Source: Candidatus Thorarchaeota archaeon (GTDB lineage: Archaea > Asgardarchaeota > Thorarchaeia > Thorarchaeales > Thorarchaeaceae). Taken from it: a DNA stretch of 29,929 bases. The stretch lies in contig DXJO01000029.1 of NCBI GenBank assembly GCA_019057475.1, positions 1 through 29,929 on the forward strand. The letters run 5' to 3'. Within the stretch, counting starts at the first letter, position 1, and every line of letters begins with the position of its first letter. The position numbers and the translations under genes were made by a program. Of the stretch, positions 813 to 29,929 are shown piece after piece. The notes under the pieces were generated by a model. That model saw only the letters and a program-made list of their open reading frames with translations. It ran no database searches and was not told the origin of the DNA.

Positions 813-1760
813 ATGACTCGCTACTGGGTTATTGCTCCGTATGATTCTCGGAATTGGAGGGTGTTCAACCATGTCTGGAATTATGACCTAGAACACGGAA
901 CGATAGCGGTTGGTTGGACATCCTTGGGTGATATAGGAGATATTGAAAAGGATAATCTCTGGGAACGGGTAGCAGAATGGCGAGAGGACTATCCTGATTC
1001 TGTGGGACAAAACGCAGTATCGTTAGATACCAATATGATATGGAACTTCCATCACAACATCAAACCTGGTGATAAAATCCTAGCTAGAAAGGGAAGAATG
1101 ATTCTATTAGCTGTAGGAACTGTAGTTGGTGAAGCCTATTTCGATTTGGAAAAGGGAAAGGAGCGAGTTGGTGACCATGGTGTAATTCCGTATCCACGCT
1201 TCATCGATGTTGAATGGAAGGAACTGAATATAGAGTTCGGAAGTATCACGTTCGCAATGAATACTATAACCGGATTTTTTGATGAGGACTACTATCAGAA
1301 TCTCATGCAAGACATCCAGGAGGATGAAAGAACTTCAGACATCGTCGGCTTCCGCTTAGAGAAGCATCTTGAAGATTTCGTAGTGACAAATATGGATATG
1401 ATATTTAATGGCGAATACGAGGTCTTCATTGATGATGATGGGCGCATAGGTCAGCAGTACCCCATCTATGGGGAATCTAGTAGACCTATAGGACACATAG
1501 ACATCCTTGCAAAGAGAGGAGAGGATGAATCATATCTGGTTATTGAACTCAAGAAGGGACAAAGCCCCGATGAAACAGTTGGTCAGGTTTTGCGGTATAT
1601 GGGTTGGGTCAGAGAAAACCTAGATGACAACGTGAAAGGCTTGATTCTCTGTACAGAGCGTGATGAAAGAATGGATCACGCAGTTTCGGTGGTTAGTGAT
1701 CTTGTTAGTATCAAATACTATGAGGTTTCATTCACACTTCATGATGAACCTCCTGATTAG
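813..1760 (+). CDS. restriction-like endonuclease: N-terminal EVE/McrB-N-like (PUA-type) domain plus C-terminal NucS-like PD-(D/E)XK domain
   Basis: N-term YWVIAP...IAVGW...IKPGDKILARKG...AVGTV. C-term LEKHLEDFV...GHIDILAK...LVIELKK...GQVLRYMGW. Confidence 0.75.
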   Translation: MTRYWVIAPYDSRNWRVFNHVWNYDLEHGTIAVGWTSLGDIGDIEKDNLWERVAEWREDYPDSVGQNAVSLDTNMIWNFHHNIKPGDKILARKGRMILLAVGTVVGEAYFDLEKGKERVGDHGVIPYPRFIDVEWKELNIEFGSITFAMNTITGFFDEDYYQNLMQDIQEDERTSDIVGFRLEKHLEDFVVTNMDMIFNGEYEVFIDDDGRIGQQYPIYGESSRPIGHIDILAKRGEDESYLVIELKKGQSPDETVGQVLRYMGWVRENLDDNVKGLILCTERDERMDHAVSVVSDLVSIKYYEVSFTLHDEPPD

Positions 1761-1782
1761 AGGAATCGGTCTTTAATTTGAA

Positions 1783-1817
1783 GGAGTTCGCGAGTTCAAA
1801 TCTCGCCCGGTCCACCA
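1783..1817 (+). repeat. tRNA-Ala 3' fragment (att-like direct repeat, copy 1)
   Basis: ggagttcgcgagttcaaatctcgcccggtccacca is a T-arm plus acceptor 3' strand plus CCA. Two mismatches to the 3' end of the tRNA-Ala at 8956-9059. No 5' half. Confidence 0.85.
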
Positions 1818-1912
1818 CATTTTACTTCTAATTCTTCGAGAATGACAAACATATCTCTCATATGAAGCGTGATTTCAGTTTGCTATTCAGGAGCCTATAG
1901 ATTCGTTTCAAC

Positions 1913-2206
1913 ATGACAAGACGTTTATTCACGGAATTGAAATTCAACATAGTTCAAGTCTGTGGAAGTGGAATAATGTCTAGAATGAAAACTGCATATC
2001 CAACAAAGCTCAAGCGATACAAAGAAGGTGGTTGGGTTGCTGTACTCCAATTTGATATGAAGGAAGCAGCAGCTCTAGTAAAAGCGTTAGGTAATGCCAT
2101 GTACGAGGCTCAGGAAACGGGTACGAACAAGATATATTTCAAGGTGCATGACAAAGGCAAAGCAGACTACCCCGAGGGGAAGGTCATAGTACAACCTAAG
2201 CCATGA
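1913..2206 (+). CDS. hypothetical protein
   Basis: 97-aa ORF (start possibly at a downstream Met) lying alone between tRNA fragments 1 and 2. Confidence 0.5.
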   Translation: MTRRLFTELKFNIVQVCGSGIMSRMKTAYPTKLKRYKEGGWVAVLQFDMKEAAALVKALGNAMYEAQETGTNKIYFKVHDKGKADYPEGKVIVQPKP

Positions 2207-2236
2207 ATGGTATTACGCGTGTGGTAATGACTGCAT

Positions 2237-2260
2237 GAGTTCAAATCACGCTCGGTCCAC
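2237..2260 (+). repeat. tRNA-Ala 3' fragment (degenerate att-like copy 2)
   Basis: gagttcaaatcacgctcggtccac is a decayed version of copy 1. Confidence 0.7.
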
Positions 2261-2353
2261 AAGTTCATAATTGTGCTAATTCTAAGTCACAGATTCAAAA
2301 ATTCTTTATGAATGACTTAACATGAACAATTCGTCTATTGGAGGAAAAGCATT

Positions 2354-2650
2354 GTGGCATCAGAAAAGTCATTGACTATTGATGTACCGAGTCCAAAGCA
2401 AAAGAGGAAGGTGAAGCTGGATTTGTTGGGTGTGGGATTCAGAGTTTCCTGGAGTAGTGGAGGTAGACCATTTCAGCAAGCATTTCGAGTAGATCTTCAA
2501 CTAGATTGGATTACTCGAATACCTACGAAGGATTCTGAAGCTGGTGAGAAAAGAAGAGATGATGTGGGAATTCCGATATGGCTTTACAGATACGTCTTGG
2601 GCCATGATTTGGATGAACTAAGAAAAGCTATTGAGAAACAACGAAAATAA
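2354..2650 (+). CDS. hypothetical protein
   Basis: 98-aa ORF with a GGAGG Shine-Dalgarno upstream of GTG, lying alone between tRNA fragments 2 and 3. Confidence 0.6.
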   Translation: MASEKSLTIDVPSPKQKRKVKLDLLGVGFRVSWSSGGRPFQQAFRVDLQLDWITRIPTKDSEAGEKRRDDVGIPIWLYRYVLGHDLDELRKAIEKQRK

Positions 2651-2684
2651 ACTTCATTGTTGATTCGAGATTGTTGTTCCATAA

Positions 2685-2760
2685 CCTTGGCAGCTGCGAC
2701 GCACTCCGCGTGCATCCAAAACGGAAGAGGTCCCGAGTTCGAATCTCGGCCGGTCCACCA
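2685..2760 (+). pseudogene. 5'-truncated tRNA-Ala(GGC) retaining its 37/38 intron (att-like copy 3)
   Basis: cc-tt-GGC-a, then an intron ending ccaa-aa (ttgg/ccaa BHB helix), then c-ggaag-aggtc, T-arm ccgag-ttcgaat-ctcgg and ccggtcc-a-cca. D arm and acceptor 5' strand are absent. Confidence 0.8.
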
Positions 2761-2976
2761 ATTCATTTCTCCTAGAAGGCCTCAATACCCGGTTATTGCT
2801 ACATGGTTTCCTATTGAAGGCATCTATGATTTTTGCAGGATGTGTATCGAGAATGATGAAAGTGATTACTACACTGAGAACTACAATATCTTTCTAAAAT
2901 GAATTCATTACTAGATTATGCGAGAAGTAATTTATAAGCTGCTCAAAAGTACATTCTATCATTAGGAGGAGAAAAG

Positions 2977-3576
2977 ATGGACCAAGCTGTCATCCAAATA
3001 GCACAGGAATTTGATTCCAAAGACGAGAAACGGGTTTATGATCCCATGGTGAAATATCTTCAAAATCAATTCACAACACTAAATTTTGAAAAAAAACGAT
3101 CACTACTCCTAGCATTCACTATGTTTTTCGACCGCAGCCATCCAGTCATTGGATTTTCTGGTTCAGAAGCAGATATTGTAGGATATTTCCCTCAGAAACA
3201 AATGAGAATCGATAAAAATGATATGCTCCTACGAAAAGGTGGAAAATACAAATTCGGAAAGAATGAGATTATCTATCCTTGCGTCATTATTCAAATCAAT
3301 ACATCTATGAAAACGGGAAAGTTGCAGCTAGAAAATATGAAAGCGCAAAATTGGAGGAAATTATTCCCACGGACGCTATTAGTGCTACTTGCAGGGCATT
3401 ATGGGGATAAGTTCGACATTCGGTTTGACAGGGAAACAAGTGCTTTTGATGAAGTAATTTCAGAACTCAGGAATCCGGATAGATGTCAAGTAGGATTGAA
3501 ACGTTTGTGTGAAGGAATGAAAACCCACATCGATACGAAATGGAGTGGAAGCGACGGGTTCTTTTCGGCTATCTAG
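2977..3576 (+). CDS. hypothetical protein, possible restriction-endonuclease-like fold
   Basis: AT-rich 199-aa ORF with GGAGGAG SD and upstream TTTATAA. E-A-D-I-V...I-I-Q-I-N-T-S-M-K resembles a divergent PD-(D/E)XK core. Confidence 0.55.
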   Translation: MDQAVIQIAQEFDSKDEKRVYDPMVKYLQNQFTTLNFEKKRSLLLAFTMFFDRSHPVIGFSGSEADIVGYFPQKQMRIDKNDMLLRKGGKYKFGKNEIIYPCVIIQINTSMKTGKLQLENMKAQNWRKLFPRTLLVLLAGHYGDKFDIRFDRETSAFDEVISELRNPDRCQVGLKRLCEGMKTHIDTKWSGSDGFFSAI

Positions 3577-8955: not shown

Positions 8956-9059
8956 TGGACCGGGCGAGATTCGAACTCGCGACCTCCCGGACATTCGGCC
9001 TGCTGAACAAGCCAGCAGGCTTGCGAACCGAACGATCTACCAGGCTGATCTACCGGCCC
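8956..9059 (-). tRNA. tRNA-Ala(CGC) with a 30-nt intron at 37/38 (intron 8992-9021)
   Basis: Reverse complement folds as a cloverleaf: acceptor GGGCCGG/CCGGTCC with G3:U70, anticodon CGC, T-arm GCGAG-TTCGAAT-CTCGC. BHB helix ttcg/cgaa, intron hairpin gcctgctg/cagcaggc. Confidence 0.95.
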
Positions 9060-13865: not shown

Positions 13866-13896
13866 TGCTCAGCAGTGTGCAGGTATAGGGGTAAGC
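13866..13896 (+). other. 5' strand of the 16S pre-rRNA processing stem
   Basis: tgctcagcagtg-t-gcag-gtat-aggggtaagc pairs with 15646-15672 (12 bp + 4 bp + 10 bp, bulge-helix-loop geometry). Confidence 0.8.
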
Positions 13897-13999: not shown

Positions 14000-15531
<1,532 letters not shown>

Positions 15532-15543
15532 AAGTTTTCACCA

Positions 15544-15690
15544 TCATAGATGGTGAGACGCTTGGCTCTGTCCTCGGACAGGGTAAGGTGCAGGCTAAGA
15601 CGGGGAAGCGGTGCAACTGTTCAGGTTGCCCCGACGCCATCGGGAGTTTACCCTTCTGCCCACTGCTGAGCACCCTTTTCCTTTTGCAAC
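15544..15690 (+). repeat. 16S 3' trailer, repeat copy 1 (structured; contains the 3' strand of the processing stem)
   Basis: Hairpins ctgtc-ctcg-gacag, gcaac/gttgc and cccga/tcggg. 15646-15672 is complementary to the 16S leader. Repeated downstream. Confidence 0.9.
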
Positions 15691-15747: not shown

Positions 15748-18700
15748 TCACATTGCGCGCAGTATTCTTCTTCTGAGTCGTCGAGCTCCTGACAGGGCCT
15801 TCTTGTACGACTCGACCTTCCATCTACTGATGAATTCCTGATAGATCTCGATGCACTCCTCAATGTTGTCGAGTGACTCTCTCAGGCTTTTCCTCTTCAG
15901 ACGTAATGCAGCTAACTCATACAGAGCCTCAGCGACCTCAATAGAGGAGAACTCCTCGACAGCCTCTTCCCTCCTGAACTCAAGAATTGCTTCGAGCACT
16001 TCCTCCTCCGTATCTTCTCCCTCTACCTCTGTTTCCAGAAGTGTGATGTAGATGTCCCTGAGAATCTCCCTGCTTCTCGCGAGTAGCTCATCGTAGCCAT
16101 GGATTCTGTCACACGGTTCCTCCTCGTCATCGAAATAGTTCTGCACAATTTCTTGGATATTCTTCTCCATGAAATCTAGGCCATCTTGAACATCCACCCC
16201 TGGTTCCAATGTGACAGCAAGCCAAGAACAAACTTCATCTCCTGTCTGGTCCGACAAAGCAGTCAACTTGACCCCAGTCCCATCCCTGCACACAGAACAG
16301 GTAAGCTTCTCTTCCCTCATCTCGAGGTATGCCCCGGGTCTTGCCCTCTTCAGGCTCAGCTTGCGAGAAATGGGTCCACTCTCTCTAAAGACGACCCCAT
16401 CTCGAGTCTCTGGATCTGGACTGGCCTCAACATCAAACTCGTAGCGGGCAGTTTCCAGGAACACCCCTCCAGACATCAAGCCGACCACTTCATTGTCCGC
16501 CAGCGCCCCCTGGCTAAGTTCCAGAAGAAGGGAGTCATCAAGGTCAACTGGAAACTCTACCCGCCAACAGACACCATGCATTTCTGCGATGCCCTGTGCG
16601 ATAGGACACAGGCTCTCATCGTGTCTAATTATCATCGTTTCATATTCGACTTCTCGACTGGTCAGTTCTTTGGCTGTGAGAGGCAGCGGCAAACGTACAT
16701 TAATGAACGGGGTTCTCCGTTCGACGTAAGGTCTTAGAAGCTGCAGTTCTCCGTAGTCGATGTCCTTGTATGGATTCCACATGTAGTACTCTCTAGACTT
16801 CTTTGAACTTTGAAGGCTGACTCCATCCACCATCGGGCGTCTAAGGAGCTCGAGCAAGTCCGAGGTCCGAAAGATACTCCTTTGGTCGCAGGGTTCGTCA
16901 CCACCGGACTTGTCATAGAGATTCACTACGTACTTGCCCGAGTCTGTACTCAACTTACACTCAATGGAATCAACCTTCGAAAGCATCTTCGATATTGATC
17001 TGAGTTCCTTTTTCACTCTTGTTCGCAGACTGGGCTGTATAGTCAAGCCCTTGGGTTCTTCAGGTGTATTATCCGGTGAAACTGCATGTATTCCCAAACC
17101 TCTGATGGCAGTGATTGCACCCCTCTTGCGTCGTATCAGTGTCATCCTACCCAAGAGCTGCCACTTGCCAGCATCATAGGCCCAAAGGTACTCTGCGCCT
17201 GCGAAACTACTTACAGCTAGACTGTAGGACTCATTCGAATTCACACATATCGACGCACCCTTTGCTATAAGATCGTGTTGAGTGGTCGACCATCTAATCG
17301 TGTTTCTCAGTTCTAAGGGTCCTCGGCCAATCCAAAGCCCGTTCAGCATATTCCGTTTGTCATAGGAGTCCTCAATGGCTACCCAAGAGTACTGATTGTC
17401 ATCATCGTCTGAATGATAGAGAATCTGTCCAAAGACAACATTGGTGCATGACTCCCTAGGAACCTTCGCAAGGAACTCTGCTCTCTTTGAGAGGTTTGCC
17501 CAGATAGCCCTGACATCAAACTTCACACTTCTAGCTTGGGTCATCCTTGTCTGGTCTGGAGTGGTCCCCAGCTGCATCAGTTGCCATGGTTTCAGTACCT
17601 CCCATAGATGACGCAAATGTTCTTGGCTCAGGGATGGAAATCTTGTTCTGATTGCTGTCAAAAGGAGGAACAGATAGTTGCCATGGAACAATGCAAGGTG
17701 GGGTCTTGTTTCCATGAGAATATCTAAGGTCTGCTTGACTTCTCCTCTAAGACCTGAGGTCAAGCGACTCTCGCGAGTCCACTCAAGGGTATTCCAGAGT
17801 GATACGGACAGGGAATCGGTCTTCAGACAGTGTGCCACTTCATTGAGCATGTCAAGACTGATGGCATCTGTTTGCTTGGACACTATCTCTTGAAGATCAG
17901 AAAGCAGGTGTTCTTCCTCTTTGTTGTCAACCCCCTTATGCCCACTCCTTTTGTGCGCTGATAGGAACCTAATTGTTTGTCGGAGTCGACGAATTTCTAC
18001 TCTCTGAGCCCTCTTCTCGTTGGGATTGCCTAGTACTAGGACCCCCTCATTCGGTGGCCGGTGGGTCTGAGCAACAATCTCTCTCTCCAACCTATCTTCC
18101 CTATACTGTCTAGGGTGTGTGATTTTCTGAGTCGGCATTATTTCGCTGCTAGTGACAAATCCCTTCCCATGAGTGCCTGCATTTACTCGCGCGCGATATG
18201 ACATTCGTGACATGATTCCAGAGTGCTGAGCAGCTTTCTCCGGTAGCGGGGTGATCTCCAATAATGAGTCAGAGTCTGGTTTCATTTCCGCCTCTTTTTC
18301 AAATAAGGAAGGGTATAGAGCGCGCAGCCACGGGATTAGGTCAAGTGAGTCCCGGATGAGCTCAGCTCGAAAAGCAGCCCTTTGAGGACTGCTGATGACA
18401 TCACAAGCTAGGAGTGGACGTCGTCCTCGACCAGTCCTCTTCCTTCTTCGTGTAGCCTTTGCTTTTTCTCTCTTGCTCCAGAATCTCGAGGACCAGTCTT
18501 GAAGCGGGGGGACCTCGATGAGATTCCACTCGATATCTGTCTTTGAGTGTCTGATTATCACACGGACATTATCCAGTAAGGGAGTAGTTCGTCCATGAAT
18601 TGATGGTCTGACGGGGAGATTCCAGACTAAATCGGTTACATGATATCTGTGTGGTGAGTCCTCCCAGAAAGGCACTACACCCCTTCTCTGATAGATTGCC

Positions 18701-20829
18701 GAGGATAGATTCGAGGGTTTTGGCCTGACAAACCAAACAGTGGTACAACCGAGAGCATTCAACTCTCCAACAAATACACGTTCCAATTCCAGCAGTGCAG
18801 CCTTGAGCCTTTGAGGCGTTTCATTCTCCAATTCACCCCAGCCAGTCACTACAACTATCATGTCACTCGGCTTTTCCGATTCAGGTGATGTCAAGGAATC
18901 GATGTCCGGGATTTCTCCTCCTTTGAAGAGATAGTCATAAATGCTTGAAGACATGTCCTTGATTTCTATGGAGTTGAAGAACGTCCGAATGTGTTTCTGC
19001 TGGCTCTTGATTCTCAGCCTTGTTTCCGCTAATGGCTTGAAATGGAAGTTGCCTGCTAGATCCAACCAGACAACCTTGGACTTGTCCTCGGATTGCTTCA
19101 GGTCATAGAGGAATTGTAGTGCATGCCAATACTCTGCCGTCCATGCTGCAGTGGGCCCTGATCTCGAGGCACTTCTTACACTGAGATAGAGGATATGCCG
19201 TCTGTCCTTGGAGGTTGACCAAACGAAGGGATTGAAAGAAACACGTCGCTTAACCGGCACACCAGTCGTCCCGATTGCCATTAATTTCGTTTTCTCACAA
19301 CCGCACAGCAATATGGCCACTCTCTTTGCAGCTGGGTTCTTGCTCCTGATTGACATGCGCCGTGCCAGTCGTGTCTGATTCTGCCTTATGCTATCCCGAC
19401 ATATGTGTCGCACAAGCAACAGTAGCTGACTCTGTGCGATTCTGGCGTCCTGCTGCGTATCGACAAGTACAATTCCTCGTAGGATATCCACTGACTCCTG
19501 GTCCCCGGTCGCTTTCCTATACTCGTTTGCAATGCCTGCAGAATAGGCACCAAGTTGCTGGACATCGGTCTTAGTGGGTACTTCGGTTATTGCTTCTTCC
19601 CACTCCATATCGGTGAGTCCGCGCATTCGGGTTTCGAGCTTGGGGACCATCTTCTCACGTTTCTTCTCGGTTCCGTCAGCTCGTCGTTGCCCTCTCGGCC
19701 GCTTGGTCCGGACTTCCCAATGAAACGCTGTTCGTGTCTTGATATCGAAGACTGCGATTGGTTGCCATATCGTAAGTTTACCTGGATGTCTTGGATTCTG
19801 TATTATCCGACGCTTGAAGACGATAAGATCCGCTCGACCCTTGCCCATGGGTGTTTCCAAAGGAACTTCAGCAGCTATCAGAAGTTCTTCGCCGGAATCA
19901 GCTAAACGGTCACCATCCAGAATGACTGACCTCAACGTGAATGGCTGAGGAAGTCCATTGGCAAGTAGACTATGCCATCTAATGCCTGCCCATCTTGCTT
20001 TTCTAATCACTTCTCTTCTGAGTCGCTCCGCATCTTTATCCCGAAGCTTGGGCTTTTTGCCTTCAAGAAGCCTATCAAGAAGGGTTATCCAATCTTGTCG
20101 ATACTCCTGTTCGATATCAGCCAAGTCTTGACTAGAATGCTGGAGCTTGTGGATTTGGTCGACGAAGAATTGCCTACAGGCCTCGGGATTAGGCTCAGGG
20201 ATTCTGCTGGTTGGTGCAACTGCACGACCAGTTCTCTTGCCGTATAGAGCCTCAATCTCCTGCACCAAAGCCCTGAGTATCTGGTCAGCATCAGGACCCT
20301 GCTGTCTTTTCTTCGCCTTCTTGTTCCTAGCTCGTTTGAAACCCCTTCTACCGGATTGACCTGATGTATAGACATACTCGACAAAGGGGATGAGTTGCCT
20401 AATCAGAAATGACACGTAGCTACGCGCATCGCCGATGGGAACATTGTGAATGAATGCTTTGCGGCAGTATTCCCGGAGGTGTGATCTGATCATGTCTGCG
20501 AAGTCCAACTCTGGCAGGTCGGGGCCGTGAGCGACCGGAACGCTCCCATACATGGATCCCCCGTCATACCCCCTGATTGTTGTTCGTCCTTTGTTGCCTA
20601 TCACTATCGGTTCGGGGAATGGAAACAGTCGAAGGAAATAATCGCGAAGCTGTGCACCTGCCATGTTGAACAGTGCATTTAGAGGACCAACCACTCCTTC
20701 TTTCTCATTCTTGACTCGTTTTCGTTCAGTGTTTCCATAGCGTGCAGTTGTCATCCATGCATTCTTGAGTTCGGCGCTACGTAGATGCTTTTCCTGACCT
20801 GTGACGACTGAGAAGTCTGGTTTCTCCAA
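15748..20829 (-). CDS. very large protein with a RecB/Cas4-like PD-(D/E)XK nuclease domain, possible degenerate RecA-like NTPase fold and C-terminal TPR-like helices; frame stays open upstream to about 21003
   Basis: E321...RAD334...D362-I-K364...Q425-x3-Y429. Then LYLSVRSASRSGPT / VVWLD / IVVVTGW, and C-terminal EVAEALYELAAL...IEECIEIY. Confidence 0.75.
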   Translation of the reverse strand: MEKPDFSVVTGQEKHLRSAELKNAWMTTARYGNTERKRVKNEKEGVVGPLNALFNMAGAQLRDYFLRLFPFPEPIVIGNKGRTTIRGYDGGSMYGSVPVAHGPDLPELDFADMIRSHLREYCRKAFIHNVPIGDARSYVSFLIRQLIPFVEYVYTSGQSGRRGFKRARNKKAKKRQQGPDADQILRALVQEIEALYGKRTGRAVAPTSRIPEPNPEACRQFFVDQIHKLQHSSQDLADIEQEYRQDWITLLDRLLEGKKPKLRDKDAERLRREVIRKARWAGIRWHSLLANGLPQPFTLRSVILDGDRLADSGEELLIAAEVPLETPMGKGRADLIVFKRRIIQNPRHPGKLTIWQPIAVFDIKTRTAFHWEVRTKRPRGQRRADGTEKKREKMVPKLETRMRGLTDMEWEEAITEVPTKTDVQQLGAYSAGIANEYRKATGDQESVDILRGIVLVDTQQDARIAQSQLLLLVRHICRDSIRQNQTRLARRMSIRSKNPAAKRVAILLCGCEKTKLMAIGTTGVPVKRRVSFNPFVWSTSKDRRHILYLSVRSASRSGPTAAWTAEYWHALQFLYDLKQSEDKSKVVWLDLAGNFHFKPLAETRLRIKSQQKHIRTFFNSIEIKDMSSSIYDYLFKGGEIPDIDSLTSPESEKPSDMIVVVTGWGELENETPQRLKAALLELERVFVGELNALGCTTVWFVRPKPSNLSSAIYQRRGVVPFWEDSPHRYHVTDLVWNLPVRPSIHGRTTPLLDNVRVIIRHSKTDIEWNLIEVPPLQDWSSRFWSKREKAKATRRRKRTGRGRRPLLACDVISSPQRAAFRAELIRDSLDLIPWLRALYPSLFEKEAEMKPDSDSLLEITPLPEKAAQHSGIMSRMSYRARVNAGTHGKGFVTSSEIMPTQKITHPRQYREDRLEREIVAQTHRPPNEGVLVLGNPNEKRAQRVEIRRLRQTIRFLSAHKRSGHKGVDNKEEEHLLSDLQEIVSKQTDAISLDMLNEVAHCLKTDSLSVSLWNTLEWTRESRLTSGLRGEVKQTLDILMETRPHLALFHGNYLFLLLTAIRTRFPSLSQEHLRHLWEVLKPWQLMQLGTTPDQTRMTQARSVKFDVRAIWANLSKRAEFLAKVPRESCTNVVFGQILYHSDDDDNQYSWVAIEDSYDKRNMLNGLWIGRGPLELRNTIRWSTTQHDLIAKGASICVNSNESYSLAVSSFAGAEYLWAYDAGKWQLLGRMTLIRRKRGAITAIRGLGIHAVSPDNTPEEPKGLTIQPSLRTRVKKELRSISKMLSKVDSIECKLSTDSGKYVVNLYDKSGGDEPCDQRSIFRTSDLLELLRRPMVDGVSLQSSKKSREYYMWNPYKDIDYGELQLLRPYVERRTPFINVRLPLPLTAKELTSREVEYETMIIRHDESLCPIAQGIAEMHGVCWRVEFPVDLDDSLLLELSQGALADNEVVGLMSGGVFLETARYEFDVEASPDPETRDGVVFRESGPISRKLSLKRARPGAYLEMREEKLTCSVCRDGTGVKLTALSDQTGDEVCSWLAVTLEPGVDVQDGLDFMEKNIQEIVQNYFDDEEEPCDRIHGYDELLARSREILRDIYITLLETEVEGEDTEEEVLEAILEFRREEAVEEFSSIEVAEALYELAALRLKRKSLRESLDNIEECIEIYQEFISRWKVESYKKALSGARRLRRRILRAM

Positions 20830-21162
20830 ACGCTTGGTTTCTTTCCATTGAAACAGAGCCCTATTGAATCGTCGAGCTGACCTCTCGTAGATATGACGAG
20901 TATCCTTGATGACACGTTCACGGAGTATGTCCAGCAGAGCCCTCAGTCCAATTAGATGTCCTTCTGTGATGACTTCAGCGGGGTTTTCTGGAAACAGAAT
21001 TACTCACCTGAGTGTCTGGTGACAAATTCCGTGAATAAGGGGCGCGGGTAATTCCCTTATTAGTTCTGCGAGAGACGCCTTCTGAATTTAAAACATCGCC
21101 TTCTTAAAATATAGTCTTAATGAATTTATATATCCAAATACATCACAAAATGGTGGAGAATA

Positions 21163-21194
21163 TCATTCATTCTTCGTAATGAAAGAGTGAGTGA
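21163..21194 (+). other. hairpin at the putative left end of the tnpB unit
   Basis: tcattcattctt/aagagtgagtga 12-bp stem with G-U pairs, starting right after GGAGAATA. TTTATATA at about 21125-21132. Confidence 0.55.
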
Positions 21195-22933
21195 AACTCC
21201 CTTGGCCTGAAGCAGGTCGGGAATTTATATGTCCGAGGAGAAAATTCGTGGGTCGCTCTAGTGGCGTAATGATAACCGCAAAGGTCCCTGTCAGATGGGA
21301 TGTGTTGACTGCTAGGCAGAAGACACGCCTGTCTAGGATTACAAGCAGAGACACGCGAGTCATCAAGGCCTATCTTGGAGTGATTGAAAAGCATGAGAAG
21401 AATCTGCTCGTCGGAAAGAGAAAGAAGCGACTAAATGCTGGTACAATTGACGAACTGACTCTGAGAACCAAGAACCGGTCATCAGTGCCGCACGACTTCA
21501 AACGACGATTCAGCAACATCTCTGTCAACGAACTGCAAGAATGTCGAGACACAGCTATGGCCATGTGGCAGGTGTACCTTGCCCTAGGTAGAGGAAAGCC
21601 ACTAAGAGCCAAGGGCTACTGTTCTCGGAAGCTGCCTCGACATGTGTTCAAGCAGAGGTTCAAATTCCTCTATACTCCTAACAAGTCTATCAAGCATTGG
21701 CTAGTTATTCGTGACTCCCTAGACTCAGTAAGAGAGGGACGGGTCAGACACGACAAGCTGTCGATACCTTTGAATCCGTCCTCGTATCATCTGAACCGAT
21801 TGAAGTCGGGTGAGATCAAGTCTATACAGATTGTCAAGGACCACAGCAAGAAATGGTGGGTCTTGTTCAAGGTGAAGCTGAAACCTGAGCCCGTCGACAC
21901 GACCTCGAAGCCACCTGCGGTAATCGGAATTGACCTCGGCATCAAGAAGGCGGTATGTTCTGTCGTTCTTACACAGAAGGGTATGAAACACATCCAATTC
22001 TGGACCCAGAAGGATAAGGCTCGGCAGATTGAGCAATACGACCAGATGATTGCCAGTCTACAATCCAAGAAAGAGGATCTCCTGAAGCAGGGATGTTCAG
22101 CTGATGATGTCACTCAACGACTTCGACAATTGAGTTCGAAACGAGAGAACATCAGCTTCGACTATGACAGAAAACTAGTCAAACTGCTGAGCGAACACGT
22201 TCTGGAGTTATCTGACAAGTATGATGTCCATGTTGCTATTGGCCGACTCAAAGGAATTCGCAATCGGGCTAGAAGGGGAAACTACAGGGGTCCTAAGTTC
22301 CGCGGAATGATTCACAGATGGGCATTCGCTAGAATTACAGACTCGTTGAAACACAAGCTTAGCATGAATGGTTTCAGTCCCAAAAGAGTATTTGCAGTAC
22401 CTGAGGCTTGGACTAGCATCAAGTGCCATAAGTGTGGACACAAGGGCATCCGCCCCAAGCAGAGCTTCTTTCTCTGTCACACTTGCGGCTATCGTGACAA
22501 CGCCGACAAGAATGCCGCCATCAACATAGGAAGGCGGCTCATCATGCTCATTCCTTCACTGAAGGATGAGAAAGGACTAGGGATGTGGCTCCTCTCTCAC
22601 GAGAAAGCCGCCCCGAAGACCCGGAGGAGCAAACGCTCTAAACGGATGTCCTCACTCCCCAAGAGGTTGCCAATCTCGTCTGAGGGGAAGTCCGTGGCTG
22701 ACTGCATTCAGACATCTCTCGGGATGTTCAGCAGTACCGACCCCGCCATGGCAACAACCATGGAAACACCGTCTGCCGCTATGGATTCTGGCCCCCATAG
22801 CACAACAAGGCAGCGGACAGAGACTATGTCTGGGATGAGGAACTCTGTTCCAATGATGCCCAGCGAAACTCTTGCACAGCCAGCAGAAGAGGTTCTGTTG
22901 GTTGCTGGTGACAGCAGTCATGAGGAGGGCTGA
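21191..22933 (+). CDS. tnpB: TnpB/Cas12f-family RNA-guided endonuclease with rearranged RuvC-II; likely start GTG 21248 or ATG 21269
   Basis: RuvC-I GID248LG, canonical Glu position is Gly (AIG351RL), alternative E405 in VPEAWTS, Zn finger CHKC/CHTC, RuvC-III NAD439KNAAINI. GAGGAG SD before 21248. Confidence 0.9.
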   Translation: MKLPWPEAGREFICPRRKFVGRSSGVMITAKVPVRWDVLTARQKTRLSRITSRDTRVIKAYLGVIEKHEKNLLVGKRKKRLNAGTIDELTLRTKNRSSVPHDFKRRFSNISVNELQECRDTAMAMWQVYLALGRGKPLRAKGYCSRKLPRHVFKQRFKFLYTPNKSIKHWLVIRDSLDSVREGRVRHDKLSIPLNPSSYHLNRLKSGEIKSIQIVKDHSKKWWVLFKVKLKPEPVDTTSKPPAVIGIDLGIKKAVCSVVLTQKGMKHIQFWTQKDKARQIEQYDQMIASLQSKKEDLLKQGCSADDVTQRLRQLSSKRENISFDYDRKLVKLLSEHVLELSDKYDVHVAIGRLKGIRNRARRGNYRGPKFRGMIHRWAFARITDSLKHKLSMNGFSPKRVFAVPEAWTSIKCHKCGHKGIRPKQSFFLCHTCGYRDNADKNAAINIGRRLIMLIPSLKDEKGLGMWLLSHEKAAPKTRRSKRSKRMSSLPKRLPISSEGKSVADCIQTSLGMFSSTDPAMATTMETPSAAMDSGPHSTTRQRTETMSGMRNSVPMMPSETLAQPAEEVLLVAGDSSHEEG

Positions 22934-23041
22934 ACATGGAAGTTGAAGGTAGAGTGGAGTTTCACTCACACTATCAGCAACGGTCGGACGTCCCTGCTTC
23001 TTGCACACACCGCCTCAGGCAGGTCAGGCCTTGTTACGACT
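22934..23041 (+). ncRNA. putative 3' end of the omega-RNA with 16S-derived guide segment(s)
   Basis: 22988-23014 is identical to the spliced 16S. 23029-23041 is complementary to 16S 15484-15496. Position matches the TnpB guide location. The 5' boundary probably lies inside tnpB. Confidence 0.65.
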
Positions 23042-23184
23042 CTACAATCTTTGAACCTGGAGGAGTTGTGCAGGTTACATATCCGGAAGGAACCAGCTGG
23101 GGACCACCTCTTCTGTTTGTATTCACGGAAACCGAAACACAAAACTAGAAACAAAAGGAACCCAATCAAGGGAGAAGACAGGAT

Positions 23185-24201
23185 ATGAATCGTAAAGAGA
23201 GAATGAACCTTATCAAAGCACTTGAAGAGAATAGAGGATCAAGAGTGTTAGTTTACATGACAGGCGATCGTCGAGGCCTGGAAACCAAGATTGCCATGGA
23301 TATCTTTCCTATGTTTCATGAACACCTCACTCAGATCGGCAAACAGGATAAAATCGACCTTGTCCTCTATAGTTCTGGAGGCTTGACAATTGCAGGGTAT
23401 GCCCTTGTAAACCTGATTCGGGAGTTCTGCGAGAATTTCAATGTTGTTATCCCATTCAAGGCTCTCAGCACAGCTACAATCATCGCTCTGGGAGCGAATG
23501 AAATACTAATGACCCCGATGGGACAGCTTAGCCCCATTGATCCATCTGTAGAACATCCATTGGGGCCTATTGTTCAAATTCCCGGTCAAGCCCGGGGTGG
23601 AATAGCTCCTGTAAATGTCGAAGATGTAAGTGCTTTCATCGACTTGGCAAGAAAGGAGATTGAGCTGAAGGAAGAGGAATCCCTGAAGAGAGTATTCGAG
23701 CTCTTGGCTGAGAAGATACATCCATTGGTCCTAGGTGCAGTTCATAGGTCACGAGAACAGATTGGTTTCTTGGCTTCAAACCTGATGAAGTACCATTGCA
23801 GTGACGAGAAACAAATAGAGAGCATAGTCAGCGTTCTAACAAGAGAACGATTCTCGCATAGCTATATCATAAGTCGTCGGGAGGCGAAGGAGAGTCTGCA
23901 CCTGAACATAGTCGAACCTGATGATAAACAGACTGGAATCATCGTTGATTTGTTCAACGCATATGAACAGATTCTACAGTTGAGTGTTCCTTATCACCCC
24001 GAAACAACATTAGGTGATCAAAAAGTTGGTTCTGCTATCTTCAACAGGGGCATCATAGAATCAGTTGATATGACACATGTATTCCGCACCAACAAAGAGA
24101 TAAGAAGAGCGGAGATAAGACAACCAGGAATCCCAGTTCCTGTATTTGGCTACCAAGAGCGTATCCTTCAGGAAGGATGGCTTGTAGACAATAACCTGTG
24201 A
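23185..24201 (+). CDS. SDH/ClpP-class serine protease-like protein
   Basis: IDLVLYSSGG, PFKALSTATIIALGANEILM...QLSPIDP, FSHSYIISRREAK. Confidence 0.85.
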   Translation: MNRKERMNLIKALEENRGSRVLVYMTGDRRGLETKIAMDIFPMFHEHLTQIGKQDKIDLVLYSSGGLTIAGYALVNLIREFCENFNVVIPFKALSTATIIALGANEILMTPMGQLSPIDPSVEHPLGPIVQIPGQARGGIAPVNVEDVSAFIDLARKEIELKEEESLKRVFELLAEKIHPLVLGAVHRSREQIGFLASNLMKYHCSDEKQIESIVSVLTRERFSHSYIISRREAKESLHLNIVEPDDKQTGIIVDLFNAYEQILQLSVPYHPETTLGDQKVGSAIFNRGIIESVDMTHVFRTNKEIRRAEIRQPGIPVPVFGYQERILQEGWLVDNNL

Positions 24202-24202
24202 G

Positions 24203-24412
24203 GTGTATTATCTGATGACTGAAGAAGAAAAGGGCCTTCCCGTCATCACTACTTCTGGTACTAGCGGTCTTACCTCCATCCTGCAGTTTACTGAAGACAC
24301 CCCGAATGAGGTATTTGCAATAATACATAGCACATCCGGAACTGAAACAGTCCTAATTGTCAAAGCCCCTGTCGAGGAAGAGGGTCCAACTGAAGAGGCC
24401 AAAGAGGAGTAG
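24203..24412 (+). CDS. small acidic protein coupled to the SDH protease gene
   Basis: 69-aa ORF directly after the stop codon, GAGGTG SD, internally repeated T(T/S)SGT motif. Confidence 0.5.
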   Translation: MYYLMTEEEKGLPVITTSGTSGLTSILQFTEDTPNEVFAIIHSTSGTETVLIVKAPVEEEGPTEEAKEE

Positions 24413-24428
24413 TATTCCCTCCAATCGT

Positions 24429-24468
24429 GCCATCAGGAGTTTGCCCGCCGCTCACTGCTGAACACCCT
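24429..24468 (+). repeat. decayed partial copy of the 16S trailer repeat
   Basis: gccatcaggagtttgccc...cactgctgaacaccct aligns to 15636-15676. Confidence 0.75.
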
Positions 24469-24594
24469 ATCTTTCTATGAACCTGCGGCAGTATTCAGTG
24501 CGAGTGGCAACTGGATTCCAAGACCATCTGGCTATTCACAACTTCAGAATGATTCATCAATGAGAGTCGACATTATTGCTATGAGCGACCCCAC

Positions 24595-25470
24595 ATGATT
24601 TCAGAGTTTCAACACTTGTTTGTTGCGCCAGGGAACTATCGCGAGCTGTCCTATGAAGGAACTCGTACACAGGAGGATAACTGGCTAGAGGGACAGCTCT
24701 TCACCAAGGGGCACGACGATTTATTTCTAGTTCACAACGGAATACCCGACTTCACAGATGTGTCCAAGACAACATGGAGTGGTGGTGGGGTTGAGGTTAC
24801 TCCCACTATTGACTGGATTGAACGAAACTGGCTAGACCATCAGGAGAAGATGAGAGAACATGAAGATCATGATTACTATTCATTCGCACGTAGAATTGCT
24901 CATGATGGCGGACTTGTTCTTGATGTAGCTAGTGGTCCAGGAGGCGGTGCAATGCCAGCAATACTATTCTTTGACTCTGACGCGAAGGTTCTCATGAGTG
25001 ACCTTGGACCCTCCGTGCTTGACCTGTGGCGCCAGCATCTTGAGAGGACTCGCGAGGGCAGGAACGTGTCCTTTGTTGGAATGGACGCCACTGAGATGCC
25101 ATTAAGGCGTAATAGATTCGACTATGTTGTGGACTCCGGAGGGTTTGGCAACATCTCTCACACCGACAAAGCCCTTCAAGAGGCCCATAGAGTTCTAAAA
25201 CCCGGTGGCACGCTCTATCTGAACGACTCAATCACTGAGGGGCTTGACCAGTTCCCTCCTGAAGTCTACAGAACGCTTGTCGAGGCGAGTCCACAAGATC
25301 AGCATGGTTGGGAGCATGTCATAAGAGATGTTGGTTTCTCAATCGTAAGCACGAAGACTTGGTCCAGAAGACAGCTAGAATACGAGGAGAGCGACCTTGG
25401 TGCATTGGCCAAAGAACATGGAGTGAAGATTTGGTTTCTAGGTCTGTCTATCATTGCAGTCAAGTCATAA
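24595..25470 (+). CDS. class I SAM-dependent methyltransferase with Trm112-like N-terminal remnant
   Basis: VLDVASGPGG, DATEMPL...FDYVV, HRVLKPGG. N-terminal EGQL...FLVHNGIPDF. Confidence 0.85.
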   Translation: MISEFQHLFVAPGNYRELSYEGTRTQEDNWLEGQLFTKGHDDLFLVHNGIPDFTDVSKTTWSGGGVEVTPTIDWIERNWLDHQEKMREHEDHDYYSFARRIAHDGGLVLDVASGPGGGAMPAILFFDSDAKVLMSDLGPSVLDLWRQHLERTREGRNVSFVGMDATEMPLRRNRFDYVVDSGGFGNISHTDKALQEAHRVLKPGGTLYLNDSITEGLDQFPPEVYRTLVEASPQDQHGWEHVIRDVGFSIVSTKTWSRRQLEYEESDLGALAKEHGVKIWFLGLSIIAVKS

Positions 25471-25480
25471 TAGTTAGGCC

Positions 25481-25626
25481 TCATAGATGATGAAACGCTT
25501 GGCTCTGTCTTCGGACAGGGTAAGGTGCAGGCTAAGACGGGGTAGCGGTGCAATCGTCAGGTTGCCCCGACGCCATCGGGAGTTTACCCTTCTGTCATCT
25601 GCTGAGCACCCTTTTCATTTTGCAAC
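25481..25626 (+). repeat. 16S 3' trailer repeat copy 2
   Basis: Near-identical to 15544-15690, with a cUUCGg loop. Confidence 0.93.
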
Positions 25627-27572: not shown

Positions 27573-27616
27573 TGACCGTTCACTCGGAGAAATTTCCCGA
27601 TTATGAAGGAAAATTT

Positions 27617-27740
27617 GCTCTGTCTTCGAACGGGGTAAGGTGCAGGCTAAGACGGGGAAGCGGTGCAACTGTTCAGGTTGCCCCGACGCCATCGGGAGCT
27701 TACCTTTCTGCCCATTGCTGAGCACCCTTTTCATTTTGCA
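27617..27740 (+). repeat. 16S 3' trailer repeat copy 3
   Basis: Near-identical to about 15565-15688. Confidence 0.93.
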
Positions 27741-27760
27741 GATGTTTCCTAGCAGAGTTC

Positions 27761-28096
27761 GTGATGATTCTACAAGTTTATATTATCAAGAGGTTACCAA
27801 GTAACTGGGTGTTATCAGTGTCCACGGTGAAGTTTGACCTTCAAGATGACCTTGAAGAACTGCGGGCGCGTCTATACCTTGACACGGGGAAGCGGCTTAC
27901 CAAGAAGGAGATTCTAGAGCTGGTGTTCAGGATTGGACTACAGAACTATGACCTCATTGTCAAAAATGTACGATCTGAAGAACAGCCTCTTGGTGATGAA
28001 ACCATCCAGAAAGTCCTCTCCATGGCTGAAGACTTGGGGCCAGGAAGTGAAGATCTCTCGTCCAAGGTGGATGAAGTTGTTTATGGTGGCAGCTGA
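27761..28096 (+). CDS. putative antitoxin (VapB-like); likely start GTG 27818
   Basis: Small ORF with an acidic C-terminus ending ...DEVVYG, 2 nt upstream of the PIN gene. Confidence 0.7.
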   Translation: MMILQVYIIKRLPSNWVLSVSTVKFDLQDDLEELRARLYLDTGKRLTKKEILELVFRIGLQNYDLIVKNVRSEEQPLGDETIQKVLSMAEDLGPGSEDLSSKVDEVVYGGS

Positions 28097-28098
28097 AC

Positions 28099-28515
28099 AT
28101 GACTGTGCTCATAGACAGCAACATCATTATTTCACTGCTTAACTTCCGCGACAAGAACCACTCCAGAGCAGAAGACCTGCTCACAGAACTAAAGAAACCA
28201 GAGTATGGAATGAGAGTCACCACCGACTATGTCTTGGACGAAGTATTGACCACACTCTGGATGCACACTCATCGAAAGGACATTGTTGTCAAGGCGTACA
28301 ATCTGGTTTGTCATGCTCCCGAGTTCATCAGGTTCGAACACACAACTCCAGAAGTTCTAGATTTAGCATGGACGAAATGGGAACAATTGGCGAAATGGCC
28401 GGAGAAACCCTTGAGTTTCACGGATTGCTGCATTCTCTCGTTCATGGATAAGAATGTAGTCGGATACTTGGCTACATTCGACTCAGACTTTGATGGCCTA
28501 GCCAATCTCGTATAG
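28099..28515 (+). CDS. vapC: PIN-domain toxin (VapC family)
   Basis: VLIDSN, VLDEV, LSFTDC, LATFDSDF. Confidence 0.9.
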   Translation: MTVLIDSNIIISLLNFRDKNHSRAEDLLTELKKPEYGMRVTTDYVLDEVLTTLWMHTHRKDIVVKAYNLVCHAPEFIRFEHTTPEVLDLAWTKWEQLAKWPEKPLSFTDCCILSFMDKNVVGYLATFDSDFDGLANLV

Positions 28516-28526
28516 GGCCATGGTTG

Positions 28527-28667
28527 AGATGATAAGATGCTTGGCTCTGTTTTCGGACAGGGTAAGGTGCAGGCTAAGACGGGGTAGCGGTGCGACTGTT
28601 CAGGTTGCCCCGACGCCATCGGGAGTTTACCCTTCTGCCCACTGCTGAGCACCCTTTCATTTTGCAA
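28527..28667 (+). repeat. 16S 3' trailer repeat copy 4
   Basis: Near-identical to copy 1 over about 28539-28667. Confidence 0.93.
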
Positions 28668-29523: not shown

Positions 29524-29571
29524 TTGGCTTTTTCTCTCTCAGAAATAGAGGCTGAAGGGGTCGGCTGAACA

Positions 29572-29722
29572 GGGAACTTTCCCTAACTGTACATTGTTGA
29601 GCACCCTCTATTTCTCACAACTAGCATTCCCGATAGTCAGTATTGGCCCACGTTATGGCCAGAGATTAGAAGTTATTTCAGATGGCGCAGAATTTTTCTT
29701 CTGAGTCGTCGAGCTCCTGACA
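29572..29722 (+). repeat. decayed trailer copy plus remnant of the 3' end of the large nuclease gene
   Basis: Colinear with 15642-15794 and includes the 27-nt identity ttcttctgagtcgtcgagctcctgaca. Minus strand reads LSGARRLRRKILRHLK* versus LSGARRLRRRILRAM*. Confidence 0.85.
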
Positions 29723-29929
29723 AGGGTGTGTAACAGCTGCAAAAAATCTGTACCAAACTGGACATCTCTTAGACGAATAGCGAATCGAAGATCCTTTTTT
29801 GTAGGTGTTAATATACTCCAGAGAGGGACCTGTACATGTAGTGTCAGTCCAGGACGAGAACCAAGTCCAAGGATGACTCTACCGTCAGTTGGCCGGGGAC
29901 GTAAAATGCCCGTGGAGAGGACGTAAGAC

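Follow-up and report, generated by a model that had tools for sequence, protein, structure and literature searches.

A giant gene beside tnpB and the 16S rRNA gene

The 29,929-nt stretch of DNA analysed here (contig DXJO01000029.1 of assembly GCA_019057475.1, from a Candidatus Thorarchaeota archaeon), referred to below as the window, carries a 16S rRNA gene, a tnpB gene and, between them, a gene for a giant protein that is identified as the aCas1 of the Asgard aCas1-TnpB family. The three genes are arranged as follows:

14000-15531, plus strand: sole 16S rRNA gene of the assembly; GAAT precedes target 1, which begins at 15348
15748-20997, minus strand: aCas1 gene, 1,749 aa from the favoured CTG start
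21248-22933, plus strand: tnpB, with a rearranged RuvC and a likely GTG start at 21248; its 3' tail overlaps the RNA scaffold

As described in the initial annotation of this DNA, the aCas1 gene is divergent from tnpB and convergent on the 16S gene; both orientations are seen in the window, and 217 nt separate aCas1 from the 16S end. The open reading frame (ORF) at 15748-20829 on the minus strand encodes 1,693 aa from a TTG codon, and the frame stays open for 57 further codons upstream, to 21000. The suggestion of a non-canonical start and of about 1,750 aa has held, since the extension is conserved among homologs, whose alignments begin at residue 1-7 of the longer reading. Translation most likely starts at the CTG at 20997 rather than at the ATT at 21000, because the codon equivalent to CTG 20997-20995 is ATG, GTG or TTG in five close homologs, behind a Shine-Dalgarno sequence of the AGGTG or GGAG type. 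Residues are numbered below from the codon at 21000 as residue 1, and the numbers first used for this protein are 57 lower.

Domain architecture of aCas1

The giant protein had no match in the Pfam, PADLOC and NCBIfam profiles, a search of Protein Data Bank sequences with both half-alignments of it matched nothing, and a pattern scan of the genome contigs for it likewise returned nothing. AlphaFold2 models were made of its two halves (predicted local distance difference test, pLDDT, of 90 and 88), and by these models and the conserved motifs the order of domains is a Cas1-like integrase, a RecB/Cas4-type nuclease, a probable pseudo-ATPase, further domains and a TPR-like tail:

20281-20997, minus strand: predicted Cas1-like catalytic helical domain, residues 1-240, with E70, H158 and D169 plus R95, N108, D166 and R172
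19381-20043, minus strand: predicted RecB/AddB/Cas4-type PD-(D/E)XK nuclease, about residues 320-540, with H343, E378, D391, K421, Q482 and Y486
18499-19212, minus strand: predicted RecA/RadB/KaiC fold, residues 597-834, with Pro in place of the Walker A Lys
16081-18078, minus strand: well-folded region in the model, a helical bundle and then several beta-rich domains, about residues 975-1640, pLDDT mostly above 90
15751-16068, minus strand: TPR-like acidic tail, subclade-specific

The nuclease motifs and the RecA and TPR calls of the first domain parse have been borne out, while the Cas1 fold in the N-terminal 240 residues had been overlooked. This region resembles Archaeoglobus Cas1 (AfCas1) with a Z score of 12.7 and a root-mean-square deviation of 3.6 over 188 residues, type I-F Cas1 with Z 12.6-12.8 and a casposase (6opm) with Z 10.7; the fold search listed nine Cas1 or casposase entries at Z 9.4-12.8 and, for this region, no unrelated fold. 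Among 83 Thorarchaeota homologs of 25-45% identity, to which the conservation counts in this section refer, the candidate triad E70/H158/D169 is conserved (E70 in 82 of 83), and it is also kept in eight distant homologs, three of which have Glu at the D169 position. In an hhalign comparison with a profile of 21 ordinary Cas1 proteins the match is weak (E 0.033, probability 1.6%), with E70, R95, N108 and D166-D169-R172 falling on Cas1 motifs in the same order. Taken together, the family assignment and the Cas1 fold can be held with high confidence. Three Cas1-containing ORFs of 1,320-1,370 aa from another Asgard family (L130-L132) were considered as relatives and set aside, as they are SF2 helicase fusions that a profile search found unrelated; these helicase-Cas1 fusions lie upstream of conserved small genes.

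The full RecB/AddB/Cas4 motif set (GxxxH, E, D, (D/E)xK and QxxxY) is present. The residues first listed as E321, D334, K364 and Q425-x3-Y429 correspond to E378, D391, K421 and Q482-x3-Y486 and are invariant or found in 82 of the 83 homologs, and an additional invariant motif, G339-x3-H343, precedes them. Of the pair first given as D362-x-K364, the Lys is conserved but the Asp is mostly replaced by Glu. A feature search gave weak PDDEXK leads at 0.88, the fold lists for whole halves being filled by other domains, and no Cys is conserved in residues 1-860, so that the Fe-S cysteines of Cas4 are absent. The third domain had been described as a degenerate RecA/KaiC-like fold, in agreement with a Foldseek E value of 2.5e-5 to RAD51 paralogs and Z 11-12.6 across residues 597-834. 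Its SASRSGPT is a degenerate Walker A motif; some homologs retain xSGK[S/T] there, and a Lys lies within the Walker A stretch in 17 of 83. With its Lys changed to Pro, the RecA-fold domain probably lacks ATPase activity.

Residues of about 975-1640 gave no fold match, the C-terminal half having been searched only as a single 890-residue model, for which reason the absence of matches does not amount to a new fold. The acidic tail is TPR-like (Z 12.4), as first read, though it varies across the aCas1 family.

Family, host range and pairing with TnpB

aCas1 is reportedly traced to Makarova et al. 2020. The family includes Asgard aCas1-TnpB loci that have been described in two groups, Cas1H-Asgard-1 and -2, with aCas1 suggested as the transposase, a GTTCACTCA motif downstream of tnpB, and a possible guide that was placed upstream of this motif and whose targets were not named (Altae-Tran et al. 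2023, PMC10691335). The giant protein, which had been treated as uncharacterised, maps onto these loci and is an aCas1, known from computation only: a Cas1-homologous E/H/D domain, an adjacent tnpB, a GTTCACTCA-type motif, an Asgard host and flanking repeats are all found here.

A profile search of 1.8 billion representatives returned 201 matches to the aCas1 family. Named homologs are from Thorarchaeota and the distant ones from Heimdallarchaeota (six of the eight come from clusters so labelled). When 36 genomes of the host family were searched with a single query, 24 proved to carry aCas1, and no match came from 24 other genomes; the present genome holds five full copies (four besides the one in the window) and one fragment.

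Of 68 loci in which sufficient upstream DNA is available, 65 have a tnpB divergent from aCas1, the other three having only 1.1-1.4 kb of upstream sequence, and because of this pairing aCas1 appears to be an obligate partner of TnpB. The pairing, together with the Cas1-like, nuclease and RecA folds, also fits the proposal that the protein is a candidate partner for end resection, recombination or integration. Even in a distant homolog tnpB adjoins aCas1, and the two TnpB clades that partner aCas1 are interleaved on the aCas1 tree. In TnpB itself D247, G352, E405 and D439 (580-aa numbering) are all invariant in 41 homologs; there is a Gly at the position of the RuvC-II Glu and an invariant Glu further on, and such an arrangement has been read as rearranged and probably active (PMC10691335). 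A dead TnpB was rejected in view of this invariant compensating Glu.

Two further arrangements of tnpB were observed. In genome G009 (L030/L144) two back-to-back tnpB genes with 16S guides lie at the 16S 3' end, where aCas1 was undetected and where a short stretch between them resembles, by eye, the TPR tail of aCas1. At another copy (G000 C53) an IS607 transposase (L043:742-1272) is convergent on aCas1, and TnpB is longer, with a canonical site and a guide that looks like the right flank.

Guides against 16S and the resistant allele

Behind tnpB lie a predicted RNA scaffold and two guides, and a short intron interrupts one of their targets in the 16S gene:

22550-22987, plus strand: predicted scaffold of the omega-RNA, whose 5' edge is approximate; the GTTCACTCA-type motif lies at 22957-22969
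22988-23014, plus strand: guide 1, matching at 27 of 27 nt the intron-less 16S of two same-genus genomes
23028-23041, plus strand: guide 2, with a mismatch at its first base, antisense to 15484-15497 in the 16S 1492 region
15358-15387, plus strand: hairpin intron of 30 nt inside target 1

The target of guide 1 is split in the host's own 16S by the 30-nt intron, which shares 26 of 30 positions with the intron found in the genome whose aCas1 is closest. Eight genomes, from seven genera, have an aCas1 gene convergent on the 16S 3' end, and these copies belong to one subclade; the top-scoring homologs and two mvhD-type copies form one clade (support 1.0). In this subclade one to three units of about 40-75 nt follow the scaffold on its 3' side, each with a short repeat ending in GGTCGG (only 8-11 nt) and a 16S-matching spacer. 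Four 16S sites are used, on both strands, each after G[A/G]AT, a motif present at 26 of 3,004 positions. Introns in the host's own 16S block 11 of 15 guide-site pairs across the eight genomes, one site having been read by eye and tnpB and 16S lying on different contigs in two genomes; among the other four pairs, three have a seed mismatch or only seven matching bases, and one is an exception. The guides of the 16S subclade thus aim at 16S alleles that the host is without.

The link to ribosomal DNA (rDNA) that was first proposed stands for this one subclade, in eight genomes, but most of the approximately 70 aCas1 loci examined, including the four other full copies in the present genome, lie away from rDNA. 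Homologs are therefore mainly away from rDNA and not away from tnpB, and the view that the aCas1 family as a whole targets rDNA is set aside by the tree.

In Thorarchaeota (L021-L040), 16S genes carry introns of 28-33 nt at up to six conserved positions, several of them in universal primer sites, and inserts of 700-900 nt are found near 16S position 875 in L024 and L039. A weak GGATCACCTC-like stretch was noticed near 23100 in the window. The scaffold end and guide array at L139:3544 and at L026 (G007 C19) might have been taken for a duplication; their coordinates overlap and they are the same DNA.

Sister subclades aim at other conserved genes. Guides of mvhD-type loci match an allele that reads CAA-TG, while the adjoining full gene reads CAG-TGC through recoding or has a different seed; this recoding of the resident mvhD is synonymous and lies at the target-adjacent motif (TAM) and seed. 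The guide of one mvhD-type element fits the allele of another, and the reverse also holds. Two such loci contain a second, 5'-truncated copy, lying downstream, that begins within the target, one of these with the susceptible TAM. The loci aimed at mvhD/VhuD (L041, L067, L088, L095, L143, L148, L149), with mutually targeting recoded alleles of the GCMQC motif, fall in two separate branches of the aCas1 tree. At tRNA-Gly loci the element bears a full tRNA with a variant anticodon stem and several spacers against other variants. Next to the stop codon of aCas1 the tRNA-Gly remnant breaks off after 8-10 nt of the target; the base context there fits only a final T, and the TAM of these loci is less clear. 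In L058, L066, L068, L071 and L090 the tRNA-Gly lies between scaffold and spacers, and up to four spacers follow.

A guide against the element's own promoter

A second, shorter guide lies upstream of tnpB:

21118-21135, plus strand: self-target, TAAT and then the TATA-box region, matching the 5' guide at 13 of 14 nt
21150-21234, plus strand: 5' guide cassette, a structured RNA ending in AGGTCGG (z -3.96), with its spacer at 21221-21234

In 39 of 42 loci the spacer of this cassette repeats the element's own TATA region, 63-69 nt away. The self-target follows AAT or CAT, its TAM shifting with the genomic target (AAT with 16S, CAT with mvhD). The mean match is 13.0 nt within loci as against 2.4 nt across loci, values which set aside a mere TATA consensus, and the promoter-matching spacer may act as an autoregulatory guide. 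In the shared divergent promoter region, the orientation of the targeted TATA box is that of the tnpB side. Positions 21180-21200 of the cassette are complementary to 22956-22976 in the 3' scaffold, which suggests a guide RNA split around the tnpB ORF. That the GGAGAATA upstream of tnpB is a 16S remnant was considered and rejected, as the same stem is present in mvhD-type loci.

Anatomy of the insertion

Genome G004, of the same genus, provides an empty site, in which the 16S gene and its trailer lead directly into the DNA that lies behind trailer copy R2 here. Relative to G004 about 9.9 kb are inserted, and the trailer is repeated:

15545-15689, plus strand: trailer copy R1, left arm of the insertion, including an arm complementary to 13866-13882
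23185-25470, plus strand: cargo in the insertion, comprising an SDH-type protease, a degenerate trailer (24429-24468) and a methyltransferase
25481-25626, plus strand: trailer copy R2, the displaced trailer; R2 and the peptidase behind it directly follow the 16S in G004
27614-28667, plus strand: trailer copies R3 (27614-27740) and R4 (28527-28667), which bracket a VapC-type pair
29570-29726, plus strand: fossil trailer and the last codons of an earlier aCas1 gene (tail 29618-29726)

The cargo at 23185-25470 was looked for in five same-genus genomes and found in none of them. At least 12 trailer copies, with cargo genes between them, run from 15545 past the window end into contig C41 (L136), which overlaps that end by about 130 nt; the cargo comes as one or two genes each and includes the protease, the methyltransferase, a peptidase, VapC-type toxins, a hydrolase and others. 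Similar trailer arrays occur in G004, G008, G029 and G031. Across genomes, the longer trailer copies retain their 3' part and have 5' edges at -35 to +37 around the 16S end. A true target-site duplication of 145 nt was rejected, given that these edges differ by 70 nt.

Both ends of the paralog C42 could be mapped, as they are common to internally deleted derivatives at many sites in the genus. The right end of C42 and these derivatives joins directly after AAT or AGT in five empty sites, in the same register as the 16S spacers, and the left end joins after a loose RRWTCNN motif; these joints fit neither casposon nor IS605 joints. The non-autonomous derivatives, of about 600-800 bp with both ends, were seen in G000 (C18, C21, C34, C2, C37, C38) and in L164-L182, at polymorphic sites, and in L168 two flanks are joined that lie 46 kb from each other in G000, which suggests a rearrangement between copies.

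Other mobile DNA was also noted. Beyond the stop codon of the aCas1 on G000 C18, a cluster of mutually similar small ORFs (C18 37008-41204; C51 96668-98068), accompanied by the remnant of a tnpB tail at 34286-34765, has the look of a further nested cargo array. At 813-3576 of the window a NucS/YhcG-type nuclease and several small unassigned ORFs of lower GC precede a tRNA-synthetase gene and are probably the end of another mobile island, and an intron-bearing tRNA lies at 8956-9059.

Proposed mechanism and alternative explanations

Starting from the directly observed domain content, residues, pairing, guides, resistant alleles and junctions, a scheme for catalysis, physical coupling and the order of events may be drawn up, in which aCas1 is, on balance, probably the enzyme that trims and joins ends for a site-specific element directed by TnpB. 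TnpB with its RNA would find and cut the unprotected 16S 3' region beside G[A/G]AT, the nuclease domain of aCas1 would trim the cut ends, and the Cas1 domain would join element DNA to one trimmed end. The other end would be repaired by homology through the arm of 16S end and trailer, leaving a working, guide-resistant 16S and displacing the old trailer outward. The same joining step, by fusing the scaffold end to DNA 3' of the TAM, would create new guides, and through the second, short guide TnpB would be able to lower expression from the shared promoter.

Several observations weigh against this reading. Support for Cas1 at the sequence level is weak, as the hhalign values given above indicate, a Z score of about 12.7 is close to values reachable by common helical folds, and the N-terminal beta (dimerisation) domain of Cas1 is absent, the match beginning at Cas1 residue 84-114. 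The junctions of the paralogs do not resemble those of casposons (a duplication of 3 nt in one case and, in three others, deletions of 18, about 31 and about 42 nt), and two resolvase/IS607-type serine recombinases in the genome could act in trans; on the other hand, no match to the Y1 transposase (PF01797) was found in this genome. Introns also occur at 5 of 14 unguided 16S sites, and since the genomes are related these are counts and not a formal test. The repeated swaps of TnpB clade on the aCas1 tree are unlike a tight, co-evolved interface, and the active site of TnpB is complete, although rearranged, whereas the effectors of known RNA-guided transposons are dead.

That active-type RuvC is among the features that would suit homing, in which TnpB cuts unprotected alleles, host RadA copies the element with its resistant allele, much as in intronless or collaborative homing, and aCas1 is only an unguided transposase for rare moves to new sites or a resection helper. 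The resistant resident alleles, the swapping of TnpB partners and the solo tnpB copies with full RNA parts agree with such a process, as do the 5' edges of the trailer remnants (-35 to +37), which look like resection and not like precise joints. Two-sided homing, however, leaves no new remnants or cargo arrays, yet the trailer copies have built up; moreover, copies with a fixed target retain an intact aCas1 across genera, and the distance from the TAM at which the tRNA-Gly remnants end, beside aCas1, is nearly constant. Homing is considered rather unlikely as the explanation of this locus.

A lower probability still is given to aCas1 as a guide writer, that is, a one-chain adaptation module (TAM trimming and integration) that adds spacers to an element spreading by homing. 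Arrays of two to three spacers against different 16S sites on both strands, in 40-75-nt units with exact post-TAM starts, cannot be simple flanks, guide 1 matches a sister genome perfectly over 27 nt, and a Cas4-Cas1 fusion (7mi4) is among the fold matches, all of which would be expected of such a module. It would have to work, however, in a two-gene unit without a Cas2-like partner and with repeats of only 8-11 nt, and in mobile paralogs the guide is the right flank, so that the spacers may be relics of past end-joining.

The initial annotation also raised a toxic effector, and a toxin or addiction module would have the nuclease kill cells that lose TnpB while a promoter-targeting guide keeps it silent. 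The self-guide does target the shared divergent promoter region, and CRISPR-like regulatory RNAs that repress toxins are known (10.1101/2023.03.03.530964). This idea has not stood up and is now very improbable: the Cas1 triad and RecA fold are unneeded for toxicity, no toxin or defence family of Pfam, PADLOC or NCBIfam was matched, the targeted TATA box faces the tnpB side, there are up to five intact aCas1 copies per genome, and in several loci aCas1 is lost or broken without loss of tnpB. Homing, guide writing and toxicity are not mutually exclusive. Least credible of all is a domesticated defence, no longer mobile, against incoming chromosomes or competing elements with foreign 16S, tRNA or mvhD alleles, which could draw on long residence at fixed sites across genera and on guides aimed at alternative alleles of essential genes, but which is at odds with an element present at 16S here and absent there in the same-genus genomes G004 and G006, with repeated fossils of earlier copies and with a patchy distribution (24 of 36 genomes of the host family).

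Returning to aCas1 as the end-joining enzyme, the guide and targets of the computationally known aCas1-TnpB pair were not identified in its description (PMC10691335), and the present locus supplies a probable start codon, candidate catalytic residues, the guide register, the TAM G[A/G]AT, natural targets, a resistant allele and an empty site. It is tentatively proposed, as a possibility that still falls short of the likelier outcome, that the full system is one of natural RNA-guided integration based on Cas1 and not on a Tn7 or tyrosine recombinase, in which TnpB selects and cuts the site, aCas1 trims, joins and writes guides, and a resistant version of the essential gene under attack travels with the element. 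If aCas1 does join where TnpB points, the pair would be a two-gene programmable integrase unrelated to the CRISPR-associated transposons (CASTs) and a living model for the passage from a transposon Cas1 and TnpB to CRISPR adaptation and Cas12. The full system would be a prokaryotic cleave-and-rescue drive and a cause of the many ORF-less mini-introns in Thorarchaeota 16S. The locus also offers a possible selective advantage by which to account for archaeal rRNA introns that have no ORF and sit in universal primer sites, and for the gene-cassette arrays behind 16S.

Comparison with known systems

Casposons insert at conserved genes. The element described here does the same and shares with casposons (6opm) a Cas1-family integrase as the only candidate transposase; it differs in that no PolB was found in the ORFs of this unit and four paralogs, in the fusion of aCas1 to nuclease and RecA folds, in asymmetric ends without terminal inverted repeats or a uniform target duplication, and in a target chosen by an RNA guide. 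CASTs of types V-K and I-F3 likewise have homing guides that are separate from the flank and aimed at adjacent conserved host sites, whereas the present two-gene unit is without TnsB, TnsC or TniQ, its RuvC D/E/D is retained in rearranged form, and the target allele is replaced or rescued, not left intact.

With the TnpB of IS200/IS605 and IS607 elements (OMEGA) and with IStrons the element has in common a TAM-dependent guide against the empty allele and, in mobile paralogs, a guide that is the right flank. In contrast to them, there is no TnpA in this unit, the guides are internal, multiple and on both strands and consist of 16S pieces 7.5 kb away from the 16S, and immunity comes from separate mini-introns or recoding and not from insertion.

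Free-standing homing endonucleases, such as T4 Seg/Mob and F-CphI of S-PM2, practise intronless or collaborative homing. In them, as here, the cutter is encoded beside its target gene and its own allele is protected by an intron or by sequence changes, while the present element is RNA-guided, multi-target and paired with an integrase-like protein. Cas4-Cas1 fusions (7mi4) also combine Cas1 and a PD-(D/E)XK nuclease in one chain, in the reverse domain order to that of aCas1, which is without Fe-S cysteines or the Cas1 beta domain; no Cas2 or canonical CRISPR array was seen in the unit, no genome-wide search for Cas2 having been made.

The closest likeness is to the Asgard aCas1-TnpB loci (PMC10691335), with an Asgard host, a diverged Cas1 beside TnpB, the GTTCACTCA motif, flanking repeats and two TnpB groups in common. 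What differs is that guides here lie downstream of the motif, in short arrays against 16S, mvhD or tRNA, and to this are added a resistant resident allele, a promoter guide and mapped ends and empty sites. A fixed-target, multi-guide, rescue-carrying and self-regulating form was not found in the literature searched, Makarova et al. 2020 being outside that search. By the features compared, the element is not a casposon, a CAST or an IS605 element; it is of the aCas1-TnpB kind.

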